Position numbers and translations under genes: made by a program
NCBI RefSeq assembly: GCF_036365525.1
Contig: NC_090371.1
Location: forward strand, 117,752,388-117,816,387
Direction of reading: 5' to 3'
Length of the DNA stretch: 64,000 nt
DNA from: Heterodontus francisci
Taxonomy: Eukaryota
The notes under the pieces: generated by a model
What the model saw: the letters and a program-made list of their open reading frames with translations, nothing else
Databases searched by the model: none
What the model was told of the DNA's origin: nothing
Shown: piece by piece, positions 1 through 47,365 of the stretch
How positions within the stretch are numbered: the stretch's first letter is position 1
How the letters are laid out: the number at the start of each line of letters is the position of its first letter

Positions 1-204
1 TTTAGATATATAATTTTTAAAAGCAGCCACAACATGTACCTCTGTGGAATATCCACCACCACACCTTTAAAGAAATTTATCCCAATCTATTATAACTGTC
101 CTTCAACTATCTCTCTATTCCAATGTTTCCTAGAATCATTATCTTTGTCATAAGTTTCATGTGAGCTTTTTGAACTACTTTTAAAGTTGATATAAACCAC
201 ATAC

Positions 205-2232
205 ACTAAATGCATTGGTCTTCACTATTGAGGATACAAGTAGCATCCCAGTATTAGCTGTAAGTCAGGAAATGGAAGGGAGGGAGGAACTCAAGAAAAT
301 TACAATCACCAGGGAAGTGGTACTGAACAAATTGTTGGAGCTGTGGGCTGACAAGTCCCCGGGTCCTGATGGACTTCATCCTTGTGTGTTAAAAGAAGTG
401 GTTAGTGAGATAGTTGATGCATTGGTTTTAATTTTCCAAAATTCCCTAGATTCGGGGAAGGTTTCTTTAGATTGGAAAATAGTGAATATAACTCCTTTAT
501 TCAAAAAGGGAGGGAGACAGAAAGCAGGAAACTACAGGCCAGTTAGCTTAATATCTGTCTTAGGGAAAATGTTAGAAGCTATTATTGAAGATGTTATAGC
601 AGGGCACTTAGAAAAATTGAAGGTAATCAGGCAGAGTCAACATGGTTTTGTGAAAAAGAAATCATGTTTAACCAATTTATTGGAGTTCTTTGAGGGAGTT
701 ACATGTGCTGTGGATGAAGGGGAACCGGTGGATGTATTGTACTTAGATTTCCAGAAGGCATTTGATAAGGTGCCACATCAAAGGTTATTGCACAAAATAA
801 AAGCTGATGGCATAGTGGGTAACATATTGGCATGGATAGAAGATTTGTTAACTAACAGGAAACAGAAAGTAGGCATAAATGGGTCATTTTCTGGTTGGCA
901 AGATGTAACGAGTGTGTGCCACAGGAATCTGTACTGGGGCCTCAACTTTTTACAATTTATATAAATAACTTAGAAGAAGGGACCAAAGGTATGGTTGCTA
1001 AATTTGCTGATGACACAAAGATAGGTAGGAAAGTAAGTTGTGCAGAGGACATAAGGAGGTTACAAAGGGATATAGATAGGTTAAGTGAGTGGGCAAAGAC
1101 TTGGCAAATGGAGTTTAATGCGGGAAAGTGTGAAATTGTCCACTTTGGCAGGAAGAATAAAAAGAAGCATATTATCTAAATGGTGAGAGATTGCAGAGCT
1201 CTGAGATGCAAAGGGATCTGGGTGTCCTTGTGCATGAATCGTAAAAGGTCAGTATGCAGGTACAGCACGTAATTAGGAAAGCTAATAAAATGTTATCGTT
1301 TATCGTGAGGGGAATTGAATAGAAAAGGTTATGCTTCAGTTATACAGGGCACTGGTGAGACCACATCTGGAGTACTATGTACAGTACTGGTCTCCTTATT
1401 TAAGGAAGGATGTAAATGCATTGGAGGCAGTACAGAGAAGGTTTACTAGACTAATAGAATGTTATTGTTTATCGTGAGGGGAATTGAACACAAAAGGTTA
1501 TGCTTCAGCTAGACAAGGCATTGTATAAAGGGATCAAAGGGTATGGGGTGAAAGCAGGAACAGGTTACTGAGTTGGATGATCAGCCATGATCATAATGAA
1601 TGGCGGAGGAGGCTTGAAGGGCTGAACGGCCTACTCCTCCTATTTTTCTATGTTCTATGTTTCTATGTGAGACCATATCTGGAGTACTGTGTGCAGTACT
1701 GGTCTCCTTATTTAAGGAAGGATGTAAATGCATTGGAGGCATTACAGAGAAGGTTTACTAGACTAATACCTGGAATGGGTGAGCTGTCTTATGAGGAAAG
1801 ATTAGACAGGCTAGGCATGTATCTGCTGGAATTTAGAAGAGTAAGAGGCAACTTGATTGAAACATATAAGATCCTGAGGGGTCTCGACAGCGTGAATGTG
1901 GAAAGGATGTTTCTCCTTGTGGGAGAATTTCGAACTAGGGCGTCACTGTTTAAAAATAAGGGGTCGCCCATTTAAAACAGAGATGAGGAGAATTTTTTTC
2001 TCAGAAGGTCATGAGTCTTTGGAATTGTCTTCCTCAAAAGGCAGTGGAAGCGGAGTCTTTGAATATTTTTAAGCCAGAGGTAGATAGATTCTTTATAAGC
2101 AAGGGGGTGAAAGGTTATCAGGGGTAGGTGGAAATGTGGAGTAATCAGTTCAACCATGAACTTATTGAATGGCGGAGCAGGCTCGAGGGATTGAGTGACC
2201 TACTCCTGCTCCTAATTCATATGTTTGTATGT
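205..2232 (+). mobile_element. 5'-truncated, decayed CR1 LINE (ORF2 reverse transcriptase and 3' end)
   Basis: ORFs 215-964, 895-1179 and 1577-1975 carry CR1 RT motifs (KSPGPDG, GNYRPVSL, QHGF, YLDFQKAFDKVPH, KFADDTK, LEYCVQYWSP). A CR1-type 3'UTR ends in a TATGTT-like tail. Frameshifts are present. Confidence 0.93.
1523..1667 (+). mobile_element. Short CR1 3'-end insertion nested in the CR1 above
   Basis: CR1 3'UTR (gatcagccatgatcataatgaatggcgg...gctgaacggcctactcct) with a ctatgtt-repeat tail interrupts the RT C-terminal coding sequence. Confidence 0.75.
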
Positions 2233-2321: not shown

Positions 2322-2790
2322 GTGTCAACTATGGCTCAGTGGTAGCATTTTTGCTTCTGTGTCAGAAGGTACTGGATTCAACTCCCACGCCAGAGACTTC
2401 AGCACGAAAGTCTAGGCTAACACTCCAGTACAGTACTGAGGAAGTGCTGCTCTGTTTGAGGTGCCTTTTGTCGGATAAGGCATTAAACCAAGGCCCCATC
2501 TGGCCTCTCAGGTAGATGTAAAAGATCACATGGCACGTTTCCTAAGCAGTGCAGTGCAGTTGTCCCCAGTGTCCTGGCCAATATTTATCCCTCAACCAAC
2601 ATTACTACAAGAGATCTTCTGGTCATTATCAGATTGCTGTTTATGGGATCTTGTTGCCTACATTTTTGGCAGCCACGTTTTCTACGTTACAACAGTGACT
2701 ACACTTCAAAAGTATTTCATTGACTGTGTAAAGCACTTTCAGGCATCCTGAGGTCATAAATGGTGCTACATAAAAGCAACTTTTTTATTT
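2322..2790 (+). mobile_element. tRNA-derived SINE (Deu-domain/SacSINE1-like) with L2-type tail
   Basis: A/B-box-like head (tggctcagtggtagc...ggattcaactccc), central ttaaaccaaggcccc...gatgtaaaagatc domain, and tail ggtgctacataaaagcaac. Related copies lie at 20870-22720 and 28145-28558. Confidence 0.75.
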
Positions 2791-3139
2791 TTATTACCAC
2801 AAGAATTATGATTATTTTGAATATTTTGCTCTCTATAATTAAAGACTCTTTTTCATTGAAGAAAATGACTTTGTTATTTATCTTTATTGTCATCTTGCTT
2901 TTGATAATTCTTCTAAATTTCTTTGGGGGTTCCCCCTTTGTTCTGTCATATGTTTGGAGGGAGAGCAGTGGATTCACGGGAGAAGTGGTGTGAAAACATA
3001 CACTTCATTTCTCTAGGGATTTCGCCAATCTTCCACTGAAGTTATGGGGGTGTTCAGCACAACCTCTGGAGTTTGGGGCCATAATCAGTAGCACTGCAAG
3101 TGTACTGTCAATAATTAAATAACAACTTTAAAAAATGTC

Positions 3140-3695
3140 TGATCAGCTGGAGTACTGCGTCCAATTCTGGGTGCCACACTTGAGGAACAATGTGAGGGTA
3201 TTGGAGAGAGTACAGAAAAGATTCACGAGAATGGTTCCAGGGATGAGGAATTTCAGTTATGAAGATAGAGTGGAGAAGTTAGGACTGTTTTCCTTGGAGA
3301 AGAGAAGGCTGAGAGGTGATCTGAAAGAGGTATTCAAAATCATGAGGGGTCTGAACAGAGTAGATAGAGAGAAACTGTTCCCAATCCTGAAAGGATCAAA
3401 AACGAGAGGGCACAGATTTAAAGTATTTGGTAAGAGAAGCAAAAGTGACATGAGGAAAAACTTTTTCATGCAGTGAGTGGTTGAGGTCTGGAATGTTCTG
3501 CCTGAGAATGTGGTGGAGGCAGGTTCAACTGAAGCATTCAAAAGGGAATTAGTTATATGAAAAGGAAGAATGTGCAGGATTACAGTGAGAAGGCAGGGGA
3601 ATGGAACTGAGGGAGTTGCTGTTTCAGAGAGCCAGTGCAGACACGATGGGCCGATTGGCCTCCTTCTGCACTGTAACAATTCTGTGATTCTGTGA
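3140..3695 (+). mobile_element. CR1 LINE 3' end
   Basis: ORF 3135-3476 (LEYCVQFW...LFSLEKRRLRGDL...TRGH), followed by a 3'UTR and an (attctgtg)n tail. Confidence 0.92.
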
Positions 3696-5539
3696 AGTTC
3701 TCCTGTTATGCCCGAAGGATTGGCTGAGTAAACACTGATCGTTCATCTATACCCAAATGCAGTGTACAGTATGATGAGAAGTGCAGTATAGCTACTTTAG
3801 CCTAACTTGGAATGAACCAATACTGACTGGATTAAGTAATTGATTCCTTAGATTTAAAACAAGTTTTTAAAAAATGTACATTTTGAATAGTTTTCTTAAA
3901 AAACTCAGTTCTTTTAATGTCCAGCTATGTGGAAATCTCTAAGTAGCTGAAATGAGAACAGTGCTTGGAAAAGTCTTGAAATCACAAGTGATTGTATAAA
4001 TACTCATGACCTTTTTAAATAATCCTTCACACTCTACTTTCATGTTTCTGTCCTAATTTTCTCCAATTGCTTCAACTTAATTTAGTTTCTTTACTGTTTG
4101 TGTCCTTTTCTACTTGTTTGACAAATCTGTTCAATGTCATAGACTATTTAATGTGATAAATCTGATTGACAAATTAGCTGGAATAACAAAAAAAAGAGTC
4201 CAGCCTGCCAGATTAAGATAGGCTTGATGCAGACGCTCTTATCTTCCAAGAAAAATCACATTTCATACCTGTAAGAATAAGAGAGTAAAAATTCCAGGGC
4301 TTTTGGATATGAAAATTCAGCACAGTGGGTGTAACAGCGCAGGTATTTCGGTCAGAACACATTTCTGCCAGGTTACTATCTTTCTATGACACTGATGACA
4401 AACTCCATTGAGGGTAGGTGTTCTTCTGTGTGTCATGTCAGTGCTGGGAGTGGGGGCTGCCAGCACTCTAGGCTTCCCTGGAAATTCCACCAGTTTTGCC
4501 TCTTACACAGCCTGTTTGAAACAGTCATTCTTACCATTCGTGTCTCTAAGTTGGCCCCACAACTTACTCTCCAAATGGTAATCGCTGGTGTTCAGCAGAA
4601 TAGTGAGGGAGAAGCATAGAGGAAGATCGGTAACGTTTTAACCTTCAGCCAAAGTTACCTGTGTGCCAACCTTCCCCGCCATTTGAAAATCTGAGTCCAT
4701 GGACAAGGTGCCATGACAGCACCAGTACTAGTGTGAGCATCTGGCTCTATGATCTCAATGATCATGCAGTGATGAGGCAGAGAAAACAGACTTTTGAGGC
4801 GGGGATGGTTGGATATGAACATGCCAGCCAAAGAACACAAATTCAACAGGTTTATCTTTCAAATAGGAATTACACAATAACGTTCAGAGAGAAACATTAC
4901 TTTCATTATTTTAACAATTCAAACAAAGCAAATGGAAAGAGGAAGAGTCTTGTCAGATAAAACCTCTAAAGCACAAAAACCAGGTGCATGTAATGTGTTA
5001 TGTGTCTATCAATATCTTCACTGCTATTGACTGCAATATCTCAGTGAACATTTGGAATTGAAAGCCCAATTCATCGGTTTTCACTGATCTGATTGCAGAA
5101 CTGTCTAGTTCTGAAGAATATCCATTGTTTCTATATTCCATCAAATGGTTTAAGGCACATCTTTCGAAATAAGGAGTGATCCTTTTAAAAACAAATCAAA
5201 TTTTAAGGCTGCTTGAACACAATCAACTCGACCCACCCCTCCTTACCTGTGGCATTGTGACCCTGTTTCCTGAATGTGGTTTGGGGTCAAGGTGAGGGCA
5301 GATGGGCATGCAGAAGTCTGATCCTGCCACACTTCAGATGGCACAACTCCAGGAGGGCAACGTCAAAATTTTACATTTTAATGCACCGAATCCCAGCTCA
5401 GGTCAGTTGACCAAATTTACATTGTAAATGATAGATCGATAGATTTAAAAAAATAGAATAATTAATATATGGAGAATGTTAATGTAATCAGAAGACACAT
5501 GCTATGAACTAATTCGAAAGGCTAATTTTTTGTTTTGAT

Positions 5540-9729: not shown

Positions 9730-12380
9730 AGGGAGGGATTTCAATTCCAGGTTGGGACCCTGACTTTGTGTTTCTTTCCGGGTCCTGACCCTCCATTGCA
9801 TTGGCAATGTACACACATTGCTATTTTAATTGAAAATGAACTTAATTGGCCAGGCTCGTTGTCCAATTAGCGGTAGCAGGTTCGGGAATGAGGTGGCACA
9901 TAGGTGAGAAAGCAACGGGCCCGATTTAAAAGGCGAGCAACAGCCATTGATGGAAAGAGCAGCTGAGCAGGGCAGTGGGTAGGGATGCCCCCCCCCCTCA
10001 CCACCGCCCACCGTACAAGGGTACAAGGGTCCCCGTATAAAGGTACAAAAGTATAACCCTGTTATACTGATGCCTCACTTGAGGTGCTGTTGGAGGTGGT
10101 GACAGCATGGAGACATATCCTCTTCCCTGCCAGCTTCATGAGAAGGGGCAGCACAGTGGCGCAGTGGTTAGCACTGCAGCCTCACAGCTCCAGTGACCTG
10201 GGTTCAGTTCTGGGTACTGCCTGTGCGGAGTTTGCAAGTTCTCCCTGTGACCACGTGGATTTCCACCAGGCGCTCCGGTTTCCTCCCACAAGCCAAAGAC
10301 TTGTGGGTTGATAGGTAAATTGACCATTGTAAATTGCTCCTCGTGTAAGTAGATGGTAGGAGAATGGTGGGGATGTAGTAGGGAATATGGGATTAATGTA
10401 GGATTAATATATAAATGGGTGGTTGTTAGTCGGCACAGACTCAGTGGGCTGAAGGGCCTGTTTCAGTGCTGTATCTCTAAATAAAAATAAATAAATAAGC
10501 CCTGCAAGACTGACCAAGAAAGTATGGCTGGAGGTGGTTCATAAGGTCAACAGCAGAGGAGTGCCGAGGAGGAACTGGGTCCAGTGCAGGAAATGTTTCA
10601 GTGACCTGCTTAGGTCTGGCAAGGTGAATCCAAAGATAGACCCAGATGGTTTGCCTCAAGGTCAGCAGCCACCAGAATGCAAAAGAGAGGGGCATCCTGA
10701 CAGTGCATAGAGTTCTCCTGACCATAGGAGAGATGTGTGCACTGCAGCACTGATGACCCATAAGAATAGTTCATAACTTGAGCGCTATTGGACAGTAGGC
10801 TGCAGTGAATAAAAAGTTGTAATTGGTGAGGGAGAGAGGCATTGTCCTAACAGCATCTTCATTTTGCAGGCCAAGCGGGAGAACAGTGCCAGGGAGAGAG
10901 AGAGAGCATGCTTGGACAGTGGGGTTCCCCAAATCACGTCACTGACATATTTTGAGGAGCTGGCCCTTGACCTGGCCAGAATGGCAAGCCATTGGAAGAT
11001 GTTGGAGATGGAGAAACGGGAGTCCAACATAGACAGGGTGAAAAGATCTCAACATCTCCAGGTTCAGGGGATGGATGGCAATTCTCCCAGTGTAATGAGC
11101 TGTCAATGCATAAGCTGCCATCTCATTATTTTAAGCAGCAGAAGTATCTGTTGATTGTGCCGATTTCTCATGACTACCTCTTCTTATGGCTCCCACAGGG
11201 CCAGCTGCAGAACAGAGGAGTTGACACACGCTGCTAACAGGTTCCAGAGGAGTCAGAGGAGGAAGACACCTCGGAGCCTGCACTGCCACATCTTTCTTGC
11301 ACACACTCCACCAGTGCAGACACTCATACCTCAGTAGGTCCTCGCATAGCACTAGAAGCAGTGGCACAAGGTGAAGTCCACATCACTTCAGAGCAGGAGG
11401 ATTTGGGGGAGGTAGAGTCAGCTGCAGAGTACATCAGCACTCCTTGGAGGATGAAGGACAGCTGCAGCCCTGCTCAGCAAGGTAGAGATGCAGAGTCTAG
11501 GGAGTCATGAAACAGATAGCTGTACCTGGAGAATCAGCATAAGATATTTTCCCACATGTCGGAGTTACCGGAGGCTCATCGGAGTCATGAGAATGGATGA
11601 GTCCATTCATCTCATGTGCTCCACAATGACTTAGTGCTTTGAACGTGTGAGCTCCTCCATAGAGAGAGTGGCAAATCTCATGGAGAGCCATATGCGGCAT
11701 CACTGAGAGTGAATGCAGGAGCAACACATTGACATGCACAAAATGAATGCTGCAGTCAGTAGCATTGACTAGTCAGTGGCACAAATGTTGCAAAGAAGCA
11801 TGGAGTGGATGCTGGCTGTGCCCCATCTGGTGATTCCCTCTACCTATCAAGGGCACTGTGAAAGGGCTGAGGAGGCAACAGATGGCGATGAGGGGCCACC
11901 CCTCATGGGGCTCCATCATCATCTGTCTCCATTGCCCCTCCAATGGACGAAGCAAATGTAGAGTTATTCCCTGTGACAGAAGCTGCCCCTGCAGTGATGC
12001 CAGCACAGCAGCCTTTGGAGGTGTGACCACCCACCCGCTGGCACCTCCATGAGGATGCTGATACTCAAGGATCTCAGTCCCAGACAAGCACTAGTGAGCA
12101 CTCTGCCTCCACCTCATCCACAGCCACAAGGGGAGAAACTCATGGGAGTGGCCGTGAGCAGAGGCCACCATGTCACTTTGTGGGTCACTTGGGTGTTTCT
12201 GTTGTAAATGATATTAAACCGTGAGGTGATAAAGTGCTGGGCATGTTGTTGCACTAAAGCAGACTTGTAAGTGTCCATTTCATCATGGTGAAAGGCAATG
12301 GACTGACTGCCTCCATTCCTGCCCTTGCATTTAAATCGAAATCCATCCACTGTTTCCATTGTGACTATGGACATGGAAAT
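9730..12380 (+). mobile_element. Decayed Harbinger element carrying an intron-containing Myb/SANT (NAIF1-like) gene
   Basis: Translation DASLEVLLEVVTAWRHILFP..[SINE]..LTKKVWLEVVHKVNSRGVPRRNWVQCRKCFSDLLRSGK, donor gt at 10624, acceptor tttgcag at 10869, then AKRENSARERER..GVPQITSLTYFEELALDLA, then acceptor tcccacag at 11198. Element ends are approximate. Confidence 0.7.
10146..10498 (+). mobile_element. HE1-type V-SINE
   Basis: tRNA-like head (gtggcgcagtggttagcac...ggttcagttc), V-domain (gagtttgcaagttctccc...ctccggtttcctcccaca), CR1-like tail gaagggcctgtttcagtgctgtatctc, and (taaa)n. Confidence 0.88.
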
Positions 12381-19389: not shown

Positions 19390-20800
19390 CATCATGAGAT
19401 TTGCACACACTCTCCCATCATTTCCTCTGGTTTCGCCCTGTTTCCATTACCCACCTGTATTAACTGGGTGCACTGGGTTGCAAATGGCTGAGCTGTATAC
19501 TTGGAAATGTAGGAAGGTACAGTACCAGAAATGAGCATTGCAGTCCATTCAGCCCTCTCTGTGAATATCGAAGTAAATTTAAAGAGACCAGAGACCACTG
19601 CCAAATTTTCAGGCTATTTCTCACCTTTTTTGTCTTTTAGGTTTCAGGAATTTTTATGACAATTGCTGTGCTGCCTTCCCCACCCCCCACCCCCGTGCTT
19701 CAGTAGTGCTACTGTGGGTTTCCTGATGGAAATCCTCTATCGGAGGAAGAGGAGGACCAATGGAGAGATGTCAGGCTGGCCAGGCTGTACCAAAGATGAT
19801 CCCCATCAACCCATACATACCTTACACCAGAATCTATAGGCAGAAGTGCAAATATCTGCATTAGTCAGAGTGCCTGCAGATATTGTAATTTACAAGGGAT
19901 CATGCCTTGGGGCGGCGCAGTGGTTAGCACCGCAGCCTCACAGCTCCAGCGACCCAGGTTCAATTCTGGGTACTGCCTGTGTGGAGTTTGCAAGTTCTCC
20001 CTGTGTCTGCGTGGGTTTCCTCCGGGTGCTCCGGTTTCCTCCCACATGCCAAAGACTTGCAGGTTGATAGGTTAATTGGCCATTATAAATTGTCCCTAGT
20101 ATAGGTAGGTGGTAGGGAAATATAGGGACAGGTGGGGATGTGGTCGGAATATGGGATTAGTATAGGATTAGTATAAATGGGTGGTTGATGGTCGGCACAG
20201 ACTCGGTGGGCCGAAGGGCCTGTTTCAGTGCTGTATCTCTAAAAAAAAAAATGCCACATTTCCAATCAGACCTGCAGCCATACTCCTTTGCTACAATAGC
20301 ACTGCCAGTGGCTGTTAAGGTCACACCCATCCTTGGCCTTTATGTTTTGGGATCATTTCATGTTTGCACTGAAGACATCGCTGTGAGCCAATCAGCTGTG
20401 GACATGTATAAATCAAGTTACTGATGCTGTATTTGTCTGAACAAATAATTTCATCTCCCTCCCCATTGACAAATGACATAGGGTGAAAGGATTCTTGTAG
20501 ATCCAGCGGGTTATGTGACACTGCATACTCCCTTGCACAAATACCACTACCTACTGAAGAAAAGATTCTATTCCATCAATATTCAATTAGTTTTTGACCA
20601 TCAAAATCATGTTGGTCCCTGCTCACTTCCCAAACATCTATCGTTTTAAAGTAATGCATCATCCCACCAAGATTTGACCTACAAAGATATATTGAAGTGT
20701 GGCCTATGGGCAATCAAGACTCATGAAACCTCTGTGGAATCACAGGATTCTAGCTGAGCACAGGTATGAAGAGTTGGCAGCATCTATCAGAACAATCATT
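19390..20800 (+). mobile_element. Harbinger transposase (HARBI1-like) remnant
   Basis: 20250-20400 translates to QSDLQP..ALPVAVKVTPILGLYVLGSFH..EDIAVSQSAV, matching the N-terminal HTH region of Harbinger transposases. Boundaries are approximate. Confidence 0.6.
19908..20250 (+). mobile_element. HE1-type V-SINE
   Basis: Near-identical to the copies at 10146 and 35159; poly-A tail. Confidence 0.88.
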
Positions 20801-23335: not shown

Positions 23336-26106
23336 ATTGGGAGGGTGTTGCCCTGGGAGTCCTCAACATTGACTCCAGACCCCATGAAGTCTCATGGAAT
23401 CAGGTCAAACATGGGCAAGGAAACCTCTTGCTGATTACCACCGACCGCCCCCTCAGCTGATGAATCAGTACTCCTCCATGTTGAACAGCACTTGGAGGAA
23501 GCAAGGGCACAGAATGTACTCTGGGTGGGAGACTTCAATGTCCATCACCAAGAGTGGCTTAGTAGCATCACTACTGACTGAGCTGGCCGAGTCCTAAAGG
23601 AGATAGGATCTGCGGGAGGTGGTGAGGGAACCAACAAGAGAGAAAAATATACTTGACCTCATCCTCACCAGCATGCCTGCTGCAGATGCATCTGCGCATG
23701 ACAGTATTAGTAGGAGAGACCATCACACAGTCCTTGTGGAGACGAAGTCCTATACACTCCATTGTGTTGTGTGGCACTGCCACAGTGCTATATGGAATAG
23801 ATTTCAAACAGATCTAGCAACGCAAAACTGGGCATCCATGAGGCACTGTGGGCCATCAGCAGCAGCAGAATTGCACTCAACCACAACTTGTAATCTCATG
23901 GCCCATCATATCCCCCACTCTACCATTACCATCAGACCTGGGGACCAACCCTGGTTCAATGAAAAGTGCAGGAGGGCATGCCAGGAGCAGCACCAGGCAT
24001 ACCTCAAAATGAGGTATCAGCCTGGTGAAGCTACAACCCAGGAGTACTTGCATGCCAAACAGTGTAAGCAGCATGATCCCATAACCAATGGACCAGATCT
24101 AAGCTCTGCAGTCCTGCCACATCCAGTCGTGAATGATGGTGGACAATTAAACAACTAACTGGAGGAGGTGTCTCCACAAATATCCCCATCCTCAATGATG
24201 GGGGAGCCCAGCACATCAGGGCAAAAGATAAAGGTACCTGGACATGCACCTGAAGTGCTATAAGCTGCAAGGCTATGGACCAGGTGCCAGAAGGTGGGAT
24301 TAGATTGGCCAGCGAGTTTCTATTTTTCTTTTCTTCTTGGCCGGCATGGACATGACGGGCTGAATGACCTCCTTCTGTGCCGTAATTTTTATATGGTTCT
24401 ATAAGGCTGAAGCATTTGCAACAATCTTCAGACAGAATTGCCGACTGGATGATCCAACTCGGTCTTCTCCGGACATCCCCAGCATCACAGATGCCAGTCT
24501 TCAGCCAGTTCGATTCACTTCGCATGATATCAAGAAATGACTGAAGGCATTGGATACTGCAAAGTCTATGGGCCCTGACAACATTCCAGCAATAGTACTG
24601 AAGACCTGTGCTCCAGAACTTGCTGTGCTCCTATCCAAAGCTGTTCTAGTACACCCAAAACACTGGCATCTACCCGGCAATTTGGAAAATTGCCCAGGTA
24701 TGGCCTGTACACAAAAAGCAGGACAAGTCCAACCCGGCCAATTACCGCCCCATCAGTCTACTCTCGATCATCAGTAAAGTGATGGAAGGGGTCGTCAACA
24801 GTACTATCAAGCAGCACTTGCTCAGCAATAACCTGCTCACTGACGCTCAGTTTGGCTTCCGCCAGGGCCACTCAGCTCCTGACCTCATTACAGCCTTGGT
24901 TCAAACATGGATAAAAGAGCTGAACTCAAGAGGTGAGGTGAGTGTGACTGCCCTTGACATCAAGGCAGCATTTGACCAAGTATGGCACAAGGAGCCCTAG
25001 CAAAACTGGAGTCAATGGGAATCAGGGGGAAAACCCTCCGCTGGTTGGAGTCATACCTAGCACAAGAAAGATGGTTGTGGTTGTTGGACGTCAATCATCT
25101 CAGCTCCAGGACATCACTGCAGGAGTTCCTTGAGATAGTACCCTAAGCCCAACCATCTTCAGCTGTTTCAGCAATGATCTTCCTTCTATCATGAGGTCAG
25201 AAGTGGGGATGTTTGCTGATTGCACAATGTTCAGCACCATTCATGACTCCTCAAATACTGAAGCAGTCTGTGTAGAAATGCAGCAAGACCTGGATAATAT
25301 CCAGGCTTGGGCTGATAAGTGGCAAGCAACATTCGCACTACATAAGTGCCAGGCAATGACCATCTTCAACAAGTTAGAATCTAACCATCTCCCCTTGACA
25401 TTCAATGGCATTAGCATTGCTGAATCTCCCACTATCAACATCCTGGGGGTTACCATTGTCCGGAAACTGATTTGGACCAGCCATATAAATACTGTGGCTA
25501 CAAGAGCAGGTCAGAGGCTAGGAATCCTGTGGCGAGAAACTCACCTCCTGACTCCTCAAAGCATTTCCACCATCTACAAGGCACAAGTCAGGAGTGTCAT
25601 AGAATGCTTTCCACTTGCCTGGATGGGTGCAGCTCCAACAACACTCAAGAAGCTTGGCACGATCCAAGACAAGGCAGCCTGCTTGATTGGCACCCCTTTC
25701 ACAAACATTCACTCCCTCCACCATCAACGCACAGTGGCAGCAGTGTGCACCATCTACAAGATGCACTGCAGCAACGCACCAAGGCTCTTTAGACAACACT
25801 TTCCAAACCCATGACCTCTACCACCTAGAAGGACAAGGTCAGCAGATGCATGGGAACTCCATCACCTGCAAGTTCCTCTCCAAGCCACACACCATCCTGG
25901 CTTGGGAATTATATCGCCGTTCCTTCCCTGTTGCTGGGTCAAAATCCTAAAATTCCCTTCCTAACAGCACTGTGGGTGTACCTACCTCACATGAACTGGA
26001 GCAGTTCAAGAAGGCAGCTCACCACCACCTTCTCAAGGGCAATTAGGGATGGGCAATAAATGCTGGCCTAGCCAGCGATGCCCACATCCCATGAATGAAT
26101 TAAAAA
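23336..26106 (+). mobile_element. 5'-truncated CR1-clade LINE of a second family (APE + RT), inserted into an older CR1 3' fragment (~23170-23332 and ~26108-26280)
   Basis: PTREKNILDLILT, KSMGPDNIP, QFGFRQGHS, ALDIKAAFDQVWH and MFAD motifs. Tail gggcaataaatgctggcctagccagcgatgcccacatcccatgaatgaattaaaaaa. Confidence 0.88.
24231..24402 (+). mobile_element. Short CR1 3'-tail insertion nested in the LINE
   Basis: aggtacctggacatgcacctgaag...gggctgaatgacctccttctgtgccg...ggttct. The host LINE resumes at ataaggctgaagc. Confidence 0.7.
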
Positions 26107-40560: not shown

Positions 40561-43274
40561 CGCCACTATTCTCCCATTTGTTGATTTTGGACAGTTAAAT
40601 TTGGGTCTTGATTTTTACTGTATATATCCCTTTACAATCATATATATTTCAGAATAAAAGTTAAGGTGATCCCTATAAAGGTAACTGTTATTTGCACACA
40701 AGCAGCATAATAATAACATGCAACCAGAAAGCCCTTGACCAAGTACAACTTCTCAGGAAACTGACCCTGGTAAATGCACTTGCGAAGAAATTATACTGGG
40801 CTGCCAACTAGGAAGCCTAATTTCCTGTTGTCTAATGCATGCTCCAGAAATTCTATTTCAGCAAGTGATGTTGATTCTTTATTTGAACGTCTGCCTACAG
40901 GGGGCAGGGTTTAAGGTTATGATATTGTCCATAAGAGTGATATCAATAAGAGAGTTATTGGTATTCTGTGTCGGCTTTTAGATTGACGCAGACTATCCAG
41001 CTGTATTGGATCTTGGGTTCCTATCATAAACATAAAGATAGACAGAGAACTAAAAAGCATTAGTGATTGGTAACAGGCAGCATGGCTGATTTTATTTTCA
41101 ACTCCCCAGAGGAACTGAAATCAATTCTAGCATCCCAATCACTGCCCAGGCTGAGATCAACTAACTCAGCAAAAGATGGGAATTTCAACTGGGGCCATCT
41201 GGTCTATATGACGGAGTGATATACAGTTAGTTCCTTTACGCACTAAGAAAGCACTTGCATTTATATATCTCAAGGGCATTTAGCAATAGGCAATAAATGC
41301 TGGCCTTGCCAGCCATGCTCAAAACCCATGAACAAATAAAAACACTTTCATGATCTCAGGACAAAGTGCTTCACAGGCAATGGAATATTTTTGAAAGGTA
41401 GTTAATCTTGTAATGTAGGGATCTATGGCAGACAACGTTTGAGCAGTAAGGTCCTAAAAACAGCAATAAGATAAATGATTAGGCTATGTAGGCCTTGAGG
41501 GGAGTTGATTTGGTTCTTAACACAGCATGAGAAGCAAAATAAAAGGGAAGCTTCTATATTCAATTCAGTACTTAATGTAATGTAGTGCAGTGGTGACTTC
41601 ACCTTTAAGAAACCATACCTTTAAGAGATCAGGCCACTGATGCAATTGATGACATCATCAGACGTATATAAGGAGGAAACGGCATTTTGACAGCTACGCT
41701 CAGCACATGGTTTTACAGAGAGCAGATATGCACCAGTGAGAAAAAGATCTGTACCTGAGATCATACTATGCAGATAGATAAGACAATACATGCTATTTGT
41801 GTTGAATCTGAATATAAAGTCTGCAGTTGTCATTTAATGAAGACTTAAGAACACAGCATAACACTGCACGTAGCAGTCTATCAGACAGCTTATTTACCTG
41901 TAAATAGCTGATTTTTTGGGCTTTGTGAATGTTCTATAGTTTCAGAAATAACCCGATTTCAAAAATTTCTTATAGTTGTGAGAGCAAGGTTTGGAGCTAT
42001 ATGGAGTTTAAGTGGGAAATGGAGCTACAACAGAAGAATTTTAAGTTTTACGAACATTTGAAAGAATGTGAAAAGGACATAAATCCCTTATCAAAAGAAG
42101 GAGAAATGTAGCAAGAATGAAAGCATAATCATGATGGCTGAATAAGGATCTTAAAAGTTAATTTGTAGTCTAAACAGAAAAATTGACCTGGCTTTCGCAG
42201 TCAGTGCTGCAGTGACAGTGCTTGCCGGTGACCTCTAAGAAAGCGACCTGCAAAGATTTAGCAATCTCTGTGGTATGGATTTCATCTTTCCTGATATTAA
42301 TTTGATTCTGGTACCAAGAATAGGGGATTTCCAGCATTCAGTGACTATGATGCCATCAAGCAGATGAAGCAGCCAATCTCATTGAAGAATACTTTCAGAC
42401 CGTAAACCAGGAAGTAAAATGCATTCATTATCTTTCACTTTTTAATAATTTTGCAGAGAGCAGAATAAAGATTGGGACATTCAAATGGGATTAAGCTTGG
42501 AGCTGAAATACCACAAACAAACTTTAAAAAAGTTAAAATTCAATGTGATTTTTTTGATCATAATGGAGAATTTTGACATTTCACAAATATATAGTTAGTT
42601 TTTTAGGGCCAAAGAGGTTGTTCAGCAGTAATTATGAACTTAGTACACTGGTTAAATCCAGTTACACCTCATTCAACAAGACATAACTTTTTCAAGGGTT
42701 TTTAGTCATACTAATAACATAAAAGTGCAAGTTCAGGTCAATTCAAGTGATTTCAAAAGAGTTCCAACTGTGGGGACTTCAACAGCACAGCTTGTGGAGC
42801 AGCCAGGAATCACTGAGTTCTGTGTTTAAGTCTGTATGTGTGGGCGCCAGAAGTTGCTGTCAGTTTCACAGTTGTAGGCTGAGACTGTATGGGCCCACCT
42901 AAGGTAGGGTTGGGGGAGGGGGGGGGGGTGTATGGAGTATCGTGACAGTGAGTGAAGGGCCTATCTCCTCCCCATTGTCAGGTCATCTTCCCAAGGGTGG
43001 GATAGGCTGATGACGGCCTTCCTTTCCAGAGGACAATTGAGTCCCTTAAGTTGCCTATTAACAACCATTTAAAAACATCTTGCTCCCGCTGGGACCTTGC
43101 CAGCAGTGGTCGGGGCCTCTGCCATGCGGGAGAGGTCACCTTGTAACATGAGGGGCACTCCCTGTGGGTTTGGGGGGGTGGCCCCCTCCAAGGGCAATCA
43201 GTAGCTCATGGAGGACCCTCACCAGGAAACACCACTCCCAGGTCGACCCTCCCCCTGGACTGCGTGACTGCCTC

Positions 43275-43520
43275 TGTTGTGTGATTGCCTTTAAAAGTAA
43301 TGTAACTTTAAGATCTTAGTATGCAAATAAGCCAAGTACCAGGATGTAGTCACGTGGCTCCATGCCAGTAACACCAAGAGGCAAGTTCTGTAATAGTTAG
43401 CTCCGTATTGTATATATTAGTTAGCTGTTTAATAAACCTGTTTGAGATCTTCAAACAATCTGAACTCCATGCATCTCATTTATGTTGCATCCGACAACAT
43501 AAAAGAAGCTTCTCATTGTA
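43275..43520 (+). repeat. 5' LTR
   Basis: Direct repeat of 45888-46145. Contains ATGCAAAT, CACGTG, a TATATA box and AATAAA. Confidence 0.95.
43351..43356. promoter_or_regulatory. E-box CACGTG in the 5' LTR (CATGTG at 45961-45966 in the 3' LTR)
   Basis: Motif seen directly, upstream of the TATA-like tract; function is inferred only. Confidence 0.4.
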
Positions 43521-43538
43521 TGGTGGCAGCAATGAATA
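43521..43538 (+). promoter_or_regulatory. Primer binding site, tRNA-Leu type
   Basis: TGGTGGCAGCaaTGaat immediately follows the LTR and is complementary to the ...GCTGCCACCA 3' end of vertebrate tRNA-Leu(AAG/TAG-type). Confidence 0.7.
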
Positions 43539-44284
43539 AAAAAAGCTTCTCATTGCATTGTGGGAACTGTGGTTAGAAGACCACAGGAAAACAGCTTTTA
43601 AAAACTACCTCCCTATGAAAGAAAGTTAAAGTAAAATACTGGCCCAAACAGGGAAAGAAGAAAACACTTACCTCAAGCTGTAGAAGACAGAGCTGAACGA
43701 CAGGCTGCAAGGAAATTGGGTGAGTCTTTTGCCGATGGGCAAGGGATACTGCTTTAAAGAAAAAGCTTTTAAGTTGTTAAGCAGATCGATTTTATTTTCA
43801 AAAGCTCTAAAGTGCTGACATATTGATCTTTTTCAAAGTCTCTGTTTAAAAAAAATGGAGAAAACCCGACTCCTCTCCCAGGCTAAAGGGTGGTCCGCGC
43901 CATTACAAGATGTGCCCGACAGTGAAAAGTGCGAGAATCCTTCATTCACACAGCTCACAGCAGAAGCTATAAAATCACTCAACCGTGAGGAGCTTGCGGT
44001 CACTCAACCTGAGTTTTCAAAAAACTCATAAAACCACTCAAGCATTAAGAATTGCCTCTTGAACAGCTGTACAAACAGACTAGCAGAAAAAAGGCACTTA
44101 AAATACCTATTGGACAGCTGTATAAACAACAGGCTTAGTGCTGGAAGCTGGACATACAGACAAGCTGCTGCTGCCAATCAAACCAGCCAAGAGAGTTTCT
44201 TAAAGGAGAAGCAGTACAGAGTCACTGAACCAGGTCTTAAAGCCAAATTCAGAGCAAAAGAACAGCAGCCAGGTGGATTCCAAC

Positions 44285-44765
44285 TTTCCCAGCATGAACT
44301 GAAAAACCTTGGATATCTAATCTGAGTTCCAACTGTTCAAACAGAGAATGCAGTTATACTTCACAGACTAAGTGATGGTAGAACCAGAGAAGCAAGCTCT
44401 AAACATAATGATAGCGATTGAAAATGAGGGATTGCACAGAATCAATACTTATGAATTATCTGAACAGGACCAGAAAAATCTTGCTAAGATATGGAAAGTG
44501 CTGGAAGATGAGCTCCGCTTAGAATTCACCACCTGGAATTGATCTCCTATAGGCAACAGCCACAGGAATCAATAGATCAGTTTGTCAGTAGATGTTGAAC
44601 TAAGGGCAACGAATGTGATTTCTTGAAACCTGAGCTGTCAGATTGAATAATGGAGTTGGTGATTATATCAACACCCATCGAAGTGTTTCAGAGGGACCTC
44701 TTGGGGGAAAAAAGAAAGGTCACAGCATTGGCGCACTTCTGGAAGATGGCAGGAAAGCACTAGAG
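44285..44765 (+). pseudogene. gag: Gypsy gag (capsid core), decayed
   Basis: FPSMN*K..SEFQLFKQRMQLYFTD..KIWKVLEDELRL/RIHHLELISYRQQPQESIDQFVSRC*TKGNECDF..LSD*IMELVI, with stops and frameshifts. An N-terminal extension may start near the ATG at 43855. Confidence 0.8.
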
Positions 44766-44909
44766 ACATACATAATTACAAACCGGTGCTTGAGGTCCAC
44801 AGCAAAACAGACCTGGGACAAGACCCAGAGAGAAGTAAGTCTCAATCAGAAGACGAGCAAGCATTCCACATTGTGAACCTGACACATTATGTTGATGAAG
44901 TCACGTAAC

Positions 44910-45245
44910 TGGAAGCTTTCACTGCCGTCAACATCACGTGCCCAAATAATGCTGGGATACACACACTCAAGGTGAGGAGTGACACTAGTGCTAGTGCAGA
45001 TATCTTACCAGTTCGAATCCTCAAAGATATGTACTGGAGTTGTTGGAGATTGATGATACAACCGACAATTGCCAAACTATTTGCATACAATGGGTCACCC
45101 ATCACTTGCAGTGGCACATTAACAATGCAATGCAGATACGACAGATCAGCATGGAAACCACAAACGTTCAACCTAGTAGGCACGAGCGGACCAGCAGTGG
45201 CAGGGCTACCAGCTTGTAGGGATCTCAACATCACCATTCACGAGA
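44910..45245 (+). pseudogene. Retropepsin-type aspartic protease
   Basis: ORF 44972-45391: DTSASADILP (degenerate DTGA), KLFAYNGSPITCSG, and AVAGLPACRDLNI (ILG..-like C-terminal motif). Confidence 0.88.
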
Positions 45246-45298
45246 GCATCGCCAAGGGGAAATCTCTAAGAACCGGAACCCGCTCACAGACTCCGACC

Positions 45299-45730
45299 AG
45301 CATCAAACGGTGGAGTCTGGAAACCCAGCAACAGCACAACTATGCTCTGCTTTCACTTCTGCTCTGTAGAGAACCGATAACACCACAATGAGCCAGAACG
45401 GACAGGTATCTCCATGAGACCAAGTACTCTACCCCTAGCAATTCCTCGACTTTAAGCCCCAAGCATTCAGATGTGGAGGATGAGGAGAGGCGAAGGATAT
45501 GCAATGTCCTGAAGAGGCGAAGGAGGAATGAGTTGAAGCATTGTCTATTGGCTGTTTGAGTTGAGATGCTGGAACTTTCCAAGAATGACGAGACCCCAAA
45601 AGTTGTCATCTTGAGAAAAGTAACAGAGTATATTAGCAGGCTGAAGGCAGAGCAACAGAAAATGAATTAAGTGTGGGAGAAACTGCAGAAAGAACAGCAA
45701 CAGATGAGATGCAAAGTCCCTGAGCAAGAG
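45299..45730 (+). pseudogene. myc: Captured Myc-family C-terminus (QHNYA motif, SP-S-D-E-D linker, bHLH-leucine zipper), in frame with the protease, with 3 premature stops
   Basis: SIKRWSLETQQQHNYA...LSPKHSDVEDEERRRICNVLKRRRRNELKHCLLAV*VEMLELSKNDETPKVVILRKVTEYISRLKAEQQKMN*VWEKLQKEQQQMRCKV, compared with Myc RRTHNVLERQRRNELK..LRD..PEL..NEKAPKVVILKKATEYI. Stops at 45389, 45557 and 45668. Confidence 0.93.
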
Positions 45731-45873
45731 TTGTCAGATCACCGAGATGTCCGATGGACCTTTGAGCCTCTATTCTTGTAAATTTCATAATCTCTAGTCA
45801 TGTATGAACAATTTTGATATTGAATTTTATGTACTTTTTACTTTTAACATACAAGACGTATCTACTTATCTTT

Positions 45874-45887
45874 GGAAAGAAGGGGGA
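45874..45887 (+). promoter_or_regulatory. Polypurine tract
   Basis: GGAAAGAAGGGGGA directly precedes the TG of the 3' LTR. Confidence 0.9.
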
Positions 45888-46145
45888 TGTTGTTTGATTG
45901 CCTTTAAGAGTAATGTACCTTTAAGATCTTATGCTAATGAGCTATGTGCCAAGACATAGTCATGTGACTACATGCCAGTCTTACTATGCTACTGTAACAC
46001 CAAGAGGCAAGTTCTATAATAGCTCTATAATGTATATATTAGTTAGTTGTTTAATAAACCTGTTTTCAGATCTTCAAACAACCTGAACTCCACGCATCTC
46101 ATTTATGTTGCATCAGACAACATAAAAAAAAAGCTTCTAATTGCA
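45888..46145 (+). repeat. 3' LTR
   Basis: TGTTG...TTGCA, followed by the TSD GCCTC. Confidence 0.95.
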
Positions 46146-46766
46146 GCCTCCTTGCCCCCCTACCATGCTGGGGCCTTCCGGACTGGCCCCGGCGACCCTG
46201 TCTCACCTACCTCTGGTCCAGGGTCCCAGTGCTGGGCCTGGGTCCGAGGCCTCTGCAGTACCAGCAGTGGCACTGCTCCCAGTGGCACTGCCGATACTGC
46301 TGAGCTGCTAGCCCTCTGATTGGCTGGCAGCTCATGGAGACGGGATCCCCATCCTTAAAACGACCTGGATCCCAGCTCATGAAAGTATGATGTAAAAAGA
46401 CAAGAGGATCGCGAGGTGGGGGGTGGAGGTATGGGGGAAACATGAAAAAGCAGAGGCGAGAATCTGCCCCCCAGCTTTTTGGCCCAGTGCCAGAAGCCCC
46501 ACCTCCTACACAAAATCCAGCCCGTAATGTCAGCAAACATTAACAGTTTTACTATCATTATAACTGGAAAATCCAGACCATTGAGTTAGAGCTATTCTAG
46601 AGGATCTCCCAGTGAATGCTTAGACTCAGCTTCATAAAAATGCAGATTGGATCTGATTTTGGGTGTGTCTGTGGTGACTTGAGGAAATTATCTATTTATT
46701 AGTGTGATAGACGTCTCTGTACTGTCTAGTTGCTTGATCTTGATTATTCAACTGAAATGTTAACAC

Positions 46767-46932: not shown

Positions 46933-47365
46933 TAGCACAAAGGTTGTGGTTGTAGGTGGTCAATCATCTCAGTTCCAGGGCATTACTGCAGGAGTTCCTC
47001 AGGGTAGTGTTCTCGGCTCAACCATATTTGGCTGCTTCATCAGTGAGCTTCTCTCCATCATAAGGTCAGAAGTGGGGATGTTTGCTGATGATTGTATAAT
47101 GTTTAGCACCATTTGCAACTCCTCAGATACTGAAGCATTCCGTGTCCAAATGCAACAAGATCTGGACAACATCCATGCTTAGTCTGATAAGTGGTAAGTA
47201 ACATTCGCACCACATAAGTGCCAGGCAATGATCATCTCAAACAAGAGAGAATCTAACCATCTCCCTTGACATTCAATGGCATTGCGATTGCTGAATCCCC
47301 CACTATCAACATTCTGGGGGTTACCATTGACCAGAAACTGAACTGGACCAGCCACATAAATGCTA
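46933..47365 (+). mobile_element. RT fragment of the 23336-26106 LINE family
   Basis: AGVPQGSVLG..MFADD..MQQDLDNI; collinear with 25060-25490. Confidence 0.85.

Follow-up and report, generated by a model that had tools for sequence, protein, structure and literature searches.

How does the C-terminal part of a Myc protein come to lie, fused in frame to an aspartic protease, between the long terminal repeats (LTRs) of a shark retrotransposon? The question is raised by a decayed LTR element of 2.9 kb at positions 43275-46145 of a 64,000-nucleotide stretch of the Heterodontus francisci genome (RefSeq assembly GCF_036365525.1, contig NC_090371.1, positions 117,752,388 to 117,816,387 of the forward strand), the whole of which is called the window here. 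An earlier note, made from the letters alone, had read the element as a Gypsy retrotransposon that had transduced a myc oncogene segment in the manner of a viral gag-myc recombinant. The answer proposed here, to which a probability of roughly nine in ten is given, is that the element belongs to a non-autonomous Ty3/Gypsy (Mag-like) family born by LTR-mediated capture of a host messenger RNA (mRNA).

The family of the window element numbers at least 2,300 copies. Copy counts come from pattern searches of the whole genome and are lower bounds; sequence analyses were carried out on 45 myc-bearing stretches (30 of the short type to which the window copy belongs, and 15 long ones) and on seven stretches of a related family with a full pol, called the helper. 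A 19-mer from exon 3 of the host gene mych matches 2,370 places in the genome, against 48 for the reversed control, and 43 of the 45 copies at hand pass the pattern. The protease-myc junction of the window type is found at 1,219 places (2 for the control) and the pattern of the original 5′ junction at 208 (0 for the control), counts that are only roughly comparable because the patterns differ in length and degeneracy. When the 6.0-Gb genome was searched with the DNA of the junction region, the best 40 of 4,282 candidates all spanned the junction, with 84-87% identity (100% for the window copy itself) and nearly all across the full query. The insertions are independent of one another: the 3′ LTR end can be read in 19 of the 30 short copies, and all 19 flanks differ. 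When the window element was taken together with six fuller loci, both ends could be read in four elements, and three of these (the window copy, L058 and L055, but not L054) have perfect and mutually different target-site duplications (TSDs) of 5 bp. The multi-copy family foreseen in the earlier note is thereby confirmed, by pattern counts, junction search and distinct flanks alike, and its mobilization as one unit agrees with the shared junctions and the differing TSDs.

In the window the anatomy of the element can be followed from end to end on the forward strand. It is flanked by GCCTC on both sides (43270-43274 and 46146-46150) and opens with a 5′ LTR of 246 bp (43275-43520). A primer-binding site (PBS) follows at 43521-43538; it is complementary to the 3′ end of tRNA-Leu(TAG), with the first 10 bases exact and 12 of 18 overall, its partner being the host tRNA-Leu(TAG) gene plus CCA. 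A broken gag with a capsid-like part (44253-44756), from which about 300 bp bearing the zinc knuckles of other copies have gone at 44751-44756, leads into a linker and aspartic protease (44757-45244) with 78% identity to helper L066. The catalytic triad of this protease (44981-44989) reads DTS in the window copy and DTG in 20 of the 45 copies examined, and its frame (44909-45391) continues unbroken into Myc-like residues. The captured segment itself, mych exon 3 corresponding to host residues about 201-357, occupies 45245-45715. Behind it lie a remnant of the helper integrase tail in a shifted frame (45716-45781), which follows a subtype-wide deletion of 169 bp, the polypurine tract (PPT; 45874-45887) and a 3′ LTR of 258 bp (45888-46145). 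Both LTRs begin with TGTTG, the 3′ copy ending in TGCA and the 5′ copy in TGTA, and the pair shows 83% column identity with a Kimura two-parameter (K2P) distance of 0.119 over 239 aligned bases. Except for that integrase tail, the window element holds no reverse transcriptase (RT), RNase H or integrase core; the frame of LTRs, TSD, PBS and PPT around gag and protease, and the missing enzymes, are thus as first described. The last 20 bases of the 5′ LTR are repeated behind the PBS, 37 bp downstream (43538-43557, within 43499-43572), a local duplication for which a slip at strand transfer is possible.

The myc segment of the window copy comprises box IV (QHNY), the bHLH (basic helix-loop-helix), most of the zipper and a stretch that, from its likeness to the nuclear import signal of c-Myc, we take to be similar to a nuclear localization signal (NLS-like stretch below). 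Its frame is broken by three stops (45389, 45557 and 45668) and its fragments are weak in Pfam (HLH E 0.0034); a less decayed copy scores above the Pfam HLH cut-off and matches solved structures of Myc at E 4e-20 to 8e-14, those of Max at 1e-5 or weaker. The Myc-family C-terminus was therefore rightly recognized, with limits slightly off: 45299-45730 had been given for what is 45245-45715.

Which Myc gene gave the segment can be judged from the host genes. Among 119 scored of 1,624 candidates, a search with Myc_N returned three host genes of two exons each, located on C5, C3 and C16. Exon 3 of the C16 gene is 86-92% identical in DNA to the copies (86% for the window copy) and 68% identical to the C5 gene. 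The C16 protein (P0004) bears the source label myelocytomatosis oncogene homolog (mych), Heterodontus francisci. In a protein tree of 30 rows, mych forms a clade (100/99) separate from c-Myc and N-Myc; within it, 12 element copies group with the C16 protein (support 98/96), leaving outside the mych of Carcharodon, Mustelus, Scyliorhinus, Stegostoma and Heptranchias. By these comparisons the donor is host mych, and not c-myc or N-myc; capture of a Myc-family gene, as first claimed, holds, the gene being the fish and shark paralog mych rather than c-myc. L-myc had been a first guess and was dropped on the protein matches and the grouping with mych; no L-myc-like gene was seen among the 119 scored candidates, which crowding by element copies may explain. 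Given the tree, capture would postdate the split from the five shark genera, and it would predate the split of organisms A and B if these labels stand for distinct species. In zebrafish, broad mych expression is reported to begin shortly after the mid-blastula transition (PMC3958507), and early expression of this kind would offer a germ-line window for capture.

That the captured molecule was a spliced mRNA is indicated by the long loci. The host mych intron (1,706 bp, GT-AG) is missing from all 15 of them, which were taken from the Myc_N search, and the exon-2 and exon-3 matches abut in 13; the window type holds exon 3 only, so that intron loss is not visible from it alone. Both capture joins are in frame and both show microhomology: GGATGCA (7 nt) is common to host mych and helper L067 at the 5′ junction, and CAAATT (6 nt) and AGATGCAG (8 nt) are common to host mych and helper at the 3′ junction. 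Of about 1.0 million host/helper position pairs, 90 share a 7-mer, and junctions placed at random would therefore rarely show such microhomology. The myc part does not interrupt pol but replaces it, since the helper runs into RT past the 5′ junction and its integrase core precedes the 3′ junction. In long copies, zinc knuckles, protease, RT stub, myc and integrase tail lie in one frame wherever this is unbroken. The earlier proposal of capture from mRNA by template switching fits these observations; the window copy itself is a secondarily deleted subtype rather than the primary capture product.

A full-pol partner, which had been suggested as something to look for, exists. A search with the integrase tail that stands behind myc in one long locus gave matches in all 150 scored places of 7,354 candidates; at the place that myc takes in the chimera, each of the five non-self loci has an integrase core or RNase H, and four of the five have a related LTR. 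In two upstream helper stretches RT comes after the same protease, and one of the two has the same LTR and gag as well. Pfam finds RVT_1, RT_RNaseH, Integrase_H2C2 and rve in helpers L066 and L063 in Gypsy order, and protease-RT-RNase H-integrase is the pol order of Ty3/Gypsy elements. Between integrase tail and 3′ LTR, helper loci L061-L063 have no env-sized gap. A helper-specific 20-mer occurs at 1,457 places (3 for the control), and a search with the RT start returned one unnamed polyprotein. The helper looks like the Mag lineage, a name that denotes likeness in PBS, TSD and LTR size rather than a position in an RT tree: as tabulated in a Culex survey (PMC3286476), Mag elements have a tRNA-Leu or tRNA-Ser PBS, short LTRs and mostly a 5-bp TSD, and the tRNA-Leu PBS, short LTRs and 5-bp TSD found here agree with that table. 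The same source describes for Mag LTRs of likewise about 250 bp, gag and pol in one frame and the domain order of the helper. Next to a helper at L068 (G000:C3:70371200-70375200; 2620-3970, reverse strand) lies a different decayed Gypsy-like pol with a protease end and RT, and at L065 (G000:C3:70368072-70371383; about 120-700, reverse strand) a myc-bearing copy in opposite orientation is set within or against a helper, head to tail.

The proposed course of events begins with a spliced mych mRNA copied, as the anatomy shows, into an element. Reverse transcriptase left the element RNA near the integrase end and re-entered it near the RT start, at microhomology each time, with mych residues 121 to about 358 substituting for RT, RNase H and integrase core and the single gag-pol frame kept. 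The chimera retained LTRs, PBS, PPT, gag and protease and, as the pattern counts show, was copied to thousands of sites, RT and integrase probably being supplied in trans by the full-pol sister family, with which gag/protease backbones were probably exchanged as well. Nested deletions, visible among the copies, gave rise to smaller subtypes, the window type being the largest counted. The myc piece presumably travelled as a passenger in an open frame, with the most-spread lineages devoid of DNA-reading residues; it would have been unable to activate genes because Myc boxes I and II are absent. Inserted copies then decayed neutrally, as is seen in the 45 copies.

The mechanism as such is known. 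Tan et al. 2016 (PMC5131818) describe LTR-mediated retrocopies in which part of an mRNA replaces the internal open reading frames (ORFs) in sense orientation and without poly(A), with microhomology (median 6 bp) at each of the two switch points and re-retroposition as a non-autonomous element; according to that account the process is known in flies, mosquito, zebrafish, chicken, mouse, human and maize. The shark family has the same hallmarks, namely splicing, ORF replacement in sense orientation, microhomology, lack of poly(A) and retroposition as a unit, and differs from the cases described there, which are young or single retrocopies, by more than 2,300 copies, several subtypes and a Myc-family domain. 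Maize Bs1 and human HERV-K/FAM8A1 (PMC5131818) are likewise LTR elements with spliced host sequence, and the switch points of Bs1 are common to all its copies, like those of the shark family; as presented in that paper, Bs1 has one to five copies with pieces of three genes, FAM8A1 is a single case, and myc is in neither. In an orchid Gypsy lineage (PMC9289625) a host-like AlkB domain has been fixed, as myc has here; the AlkB domain is described as an extra ORF with demonstrated enzyme activity, whereas the shark myc replaces pol. The shark family is real and well supported; its mechanism is known LTR-mediated retroposition, and its cargo and scale are unusual and did not turn up in print in the searches made.

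Subtypes were compared for deletions in 12 of the 30 short copies and in the 15 long ones. The 378 bp missing from the window type took with them the RT stub, mych exon 2 and box IIIb; the type also has, in common with six long loci, the frame-shifting deletion of 169 bp behind myc. Net synonymous divergence between short and long types amounts to 0.10-0.15 in gag/protease and 0.03 in myc, and helper L067 is nested within the protease clade of the long type; the low divergence of myc beside a high divergence of the backbone, together with the placement of L067, argues that the myc cassette moved between helper backbones, as would be expected when two RNAs share a particle.

After insertion, decay is neutral. 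Post-insertion events number 437 non-synonymous and 218 synonymous, against 438 and 205 expected; the myc part holds a stop or frameshift in 41 of the 45 copies and neither in four, and four LTR pairs diverge by 0.119-0.155. Purifying selection on the myc part was not demonstrated in these copies, and several apparent signs of it were set aside. A deficit of stop codons in the 45 copies (25 against 36.6, P 0.028) was rejected since an antisense control frame gave 21 against 37, and also because the long copies had been chosen by protein score. Shared variants seemed too rich in synonymous changes (28 non-synonymous, 27 synonymous), an excess that disappeared against the type-specific expectation of 29 and 22.5. 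In gag/protease the comparison of subtypes gives a signal of purifying selection, which is not ascribed to the myc element since helper backbones enter the mixture. Runs X7 and X5, guessed to be RNA, cover 30 of 30 bins and are deeper over myc; their depth is not evidence of expression, as host mych mRNA and DNA carry-over contribute, and no holder of the element sequence is on record as RNA in the run listing.

Several points weigh against the origin and passenger role proposed above. The 45 copies are the best matches among thousands, with the 15 long ones picked by protein score; no more than 119 of the 1,624 Myc_N candidates were scored, and the protein tree has no L-Myc row. All helper copies read are decayed and interrupted, and mobilization in trans by the helper is deduced from shared ends and missing enzymes rather than seen. 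Finally, in-frame junctions (seven of eight) and fixed changes of key residues exceed the needs of a pure passenger.

This last point carries the alternative that survives best, which accepts the same origin and holds that the Myc fragment mattered as a protein; we regard it as possible, though clearly the less likely of the two roles. A single frame would yield Gag-protease-(RT stub)-Myc at Gag levels, from which the protease could free a C-terminal piece of Myc that might still pair with Max in the absence of an activation domain, a natural dominant negative; selection would first have held the frame open and then stripped it, one step after another, of E-box and nuclear import residues, leaving a detoxified fragment or a sink for Max from which the element profits. 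The frame is indeed kept by both capture junctions and by five of six distinct deletions upstream of or inside myc (binomial P 0.003 for seven of eight, 0.018 for five of six), the one out-of-frame deletion being private to L040 and an extra 5-bp loss of L007 at the 378-bp site being counted as the same event, whereas downstream of myc the shared deletion of 169 bp does shift it. The E-box contacts of c-Myc are His359, Glu363 and Arg367 (PMC10437117). At the position of Glu363, exact pattern matches read Lys in 682 cases and Glu in 44, one of the latter being the host gene, and the E-box-reading Glu is thus lost in 682 of 725 matched copies (94%). Of the other two contacts, the His has been replaced in 21 of the 30 short copies and in 7 of the 14 long ones readable there, and the Arg is mostly kept. 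At a lysine of the NLS-like stretch, which is Lys in six other cartilaginous-fish mych proteins as well, Gln stands in 28 of the 30 short copies but in 2 of the 15 long ones. Three of about 10 amino-acid changes of the element lineage, the Glu, His and NLS-like ones, therefore fall on DNA-reading or import residues (P 0.006 with 7 named residues of 151, a post-hoc value, as the residues were picked after the data had been seen). The in-frame joins and the stepwise loss of key residues hint that a Gag-protease-Myc polyprotein may once have been made.

Other results speak for the passenger. Net dN/dS (the ratio of non-synonymous to synonymous change) of myc between subtypes is 0.021/0.032 and cannot be told from a neutral bootstrap (P 0.23), and no stop deficit is found beyond that of the control frames (19 against 25, P 0.13). 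Where codon words are repeated, deletions tend to preserve the frame in any case, and the open frame could serve only to escape nonsense-mediated decay, by which an RNA with an open frame is spared. That a Myc fragment, expressed over a long time within the Gag polyprotein in the shark germ line or early embryo, acted on the host Myc/Max network strongly enough for selection to hold the frame open and reshape its DNA-reading and nuclear import residues, and that this influenced which subtypes amplified, is entertained as a tentative second view; if true, the family would be a heritable natural counterpart of oncogene transduction, ending in a dominant-negative or disarmed Myc.

A far less probable alternative takes the element for a true analogue of v-myc, an oncogene that promoted growth and so let the element itself, or the cells hosting it, proliferate to advantage. 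MC29-type viruses are defective, acutely transforming retroviruses that depend on a helper, and the shark layout resembles theirs: gag is kept, myc stands in place of pol, a helper appears to be needed, and the copy number of the chimera is high, above the helper count. The gag-myc protein of avian myelocytomatosis virus (P0126) likewise combines gag with an intronless, in-frame myc in place of pol; the shark element differs in being a germ-line inherited Ty3/Gypsy element with no env seen, in having mych as donor, in lacking boxes I and II and in its altered basic region. Box I of host mych lies at residue 42 and box II at residue 101 of 366, and the captured part starts at residue 121 in long types and 201 in the window type, past both boxes; in P0126, box II is still present and the basic motif intact. 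Box II recruits activation machinery (PMC7226237). Together with the loss of the E-box Glu, these differences largely refute an oncogenic role for the main subtypes. An oncogenic earliest subtype, still bearing the Glu, keeps a slight chance, given that Hydra Myc3 is described as box-deficient with oncogenic potential (PMC10177328). In predicted content, then, the element is a v-myc by layout only and no transforming gene, because capture never took in boxes I and II, and Lys mostly stands in place of the E-box Glu; of the likeness to v-myc drawn in the earlier note, gag retention, pol replacement and helper stand, and a likeness in function is not supported.

The remaining alternative, a mych processed pseudogene inside a resident LTR element or an assembly chimera, has in its favour that the myc part is intronless like any retrocopy, and is given practically no chance, as poly(A), 3′ untranslated region (UTR) and TSD are missing around myc, pol is replaced with microhomology at both ends, 1,219 places have one and the same junction at independent sites, and the junction is bridged, with more than 31 letters on each side, by a contig from each of two runs, the DNA run X1 and X5, the latter filed under another organism label. 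The later-retrocopy and assembly-chimera objections that had been feared for this locus are thereby removed. For organism C (run X10), all bins are covered and contigs of the myc part exist, but on their short side the pieces reach just some 21 and 16 letters past the junction, and they are not counted as bridging it.

To return to the capture of host mych mRNA by a Mag-like element, fusion proteins joining myc to the protease side carry one shark species label only among 120 listed of 682 matches, and among eight longer protein matches the sole retroelement fusion is the avian gag-myc; these lists speak only weakly for absence from other species, since annotation seldom includes decayed repeats. 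As the earlier note had supposed, no published description of a myc-bearing Gypsy family was found, in a search that left subscription journals, Repbase, Dfam and supplements aside, which may hold one. On the proposed reading, transduction of the oncogene style, with gag kept, pol replaced by myc, dependence on a helper and recombination of backbones, would have taken place in a non-infectious vertebrate LTR retrotransposon and would not have been an evolutionary dead end, the chimera outnumbering its helper. With nested subtypes and thousands of copies, the order of events after capture can be read, and one may ask whether a captured regulator becomes passenger, burden or tool.

The family also touches gene annotation. 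Five proteins in public sets, P0001, P0002, P0003, P0005 and P0010, are element copies labelled 'N-myc' or 'myc proto-oncogene protein-like'; boxes I and II are missing from all five, and four have retrotransposon residues at their start or end. With at least five copies annotated as Myc genes, Myc counts would be inflated in studies of shark genomes or cancer genes.

Other repeats and rearranged elements were noted along the way. Two repeats in the window also interrupt helper loci L066 and L063: a LINE-like RT tail (25246-26106 and 47117-47361) and a short repeat of about 350 bp (10151-10498, 19914-20251 and 35165-35483). Tandem or recombined elements occur, with an LTR followed by a PBS behind the 3′ LTR of L019, and extra LTRs lie inside or just upstream of copies in L013 (3472-3803), L026 (270-548) and L056 (3535-3738). 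A tandem array at G000:C34:18727276-19004144 contains about 90 tRNA-Leu-like ends at a spacing of about 3,050 bp.

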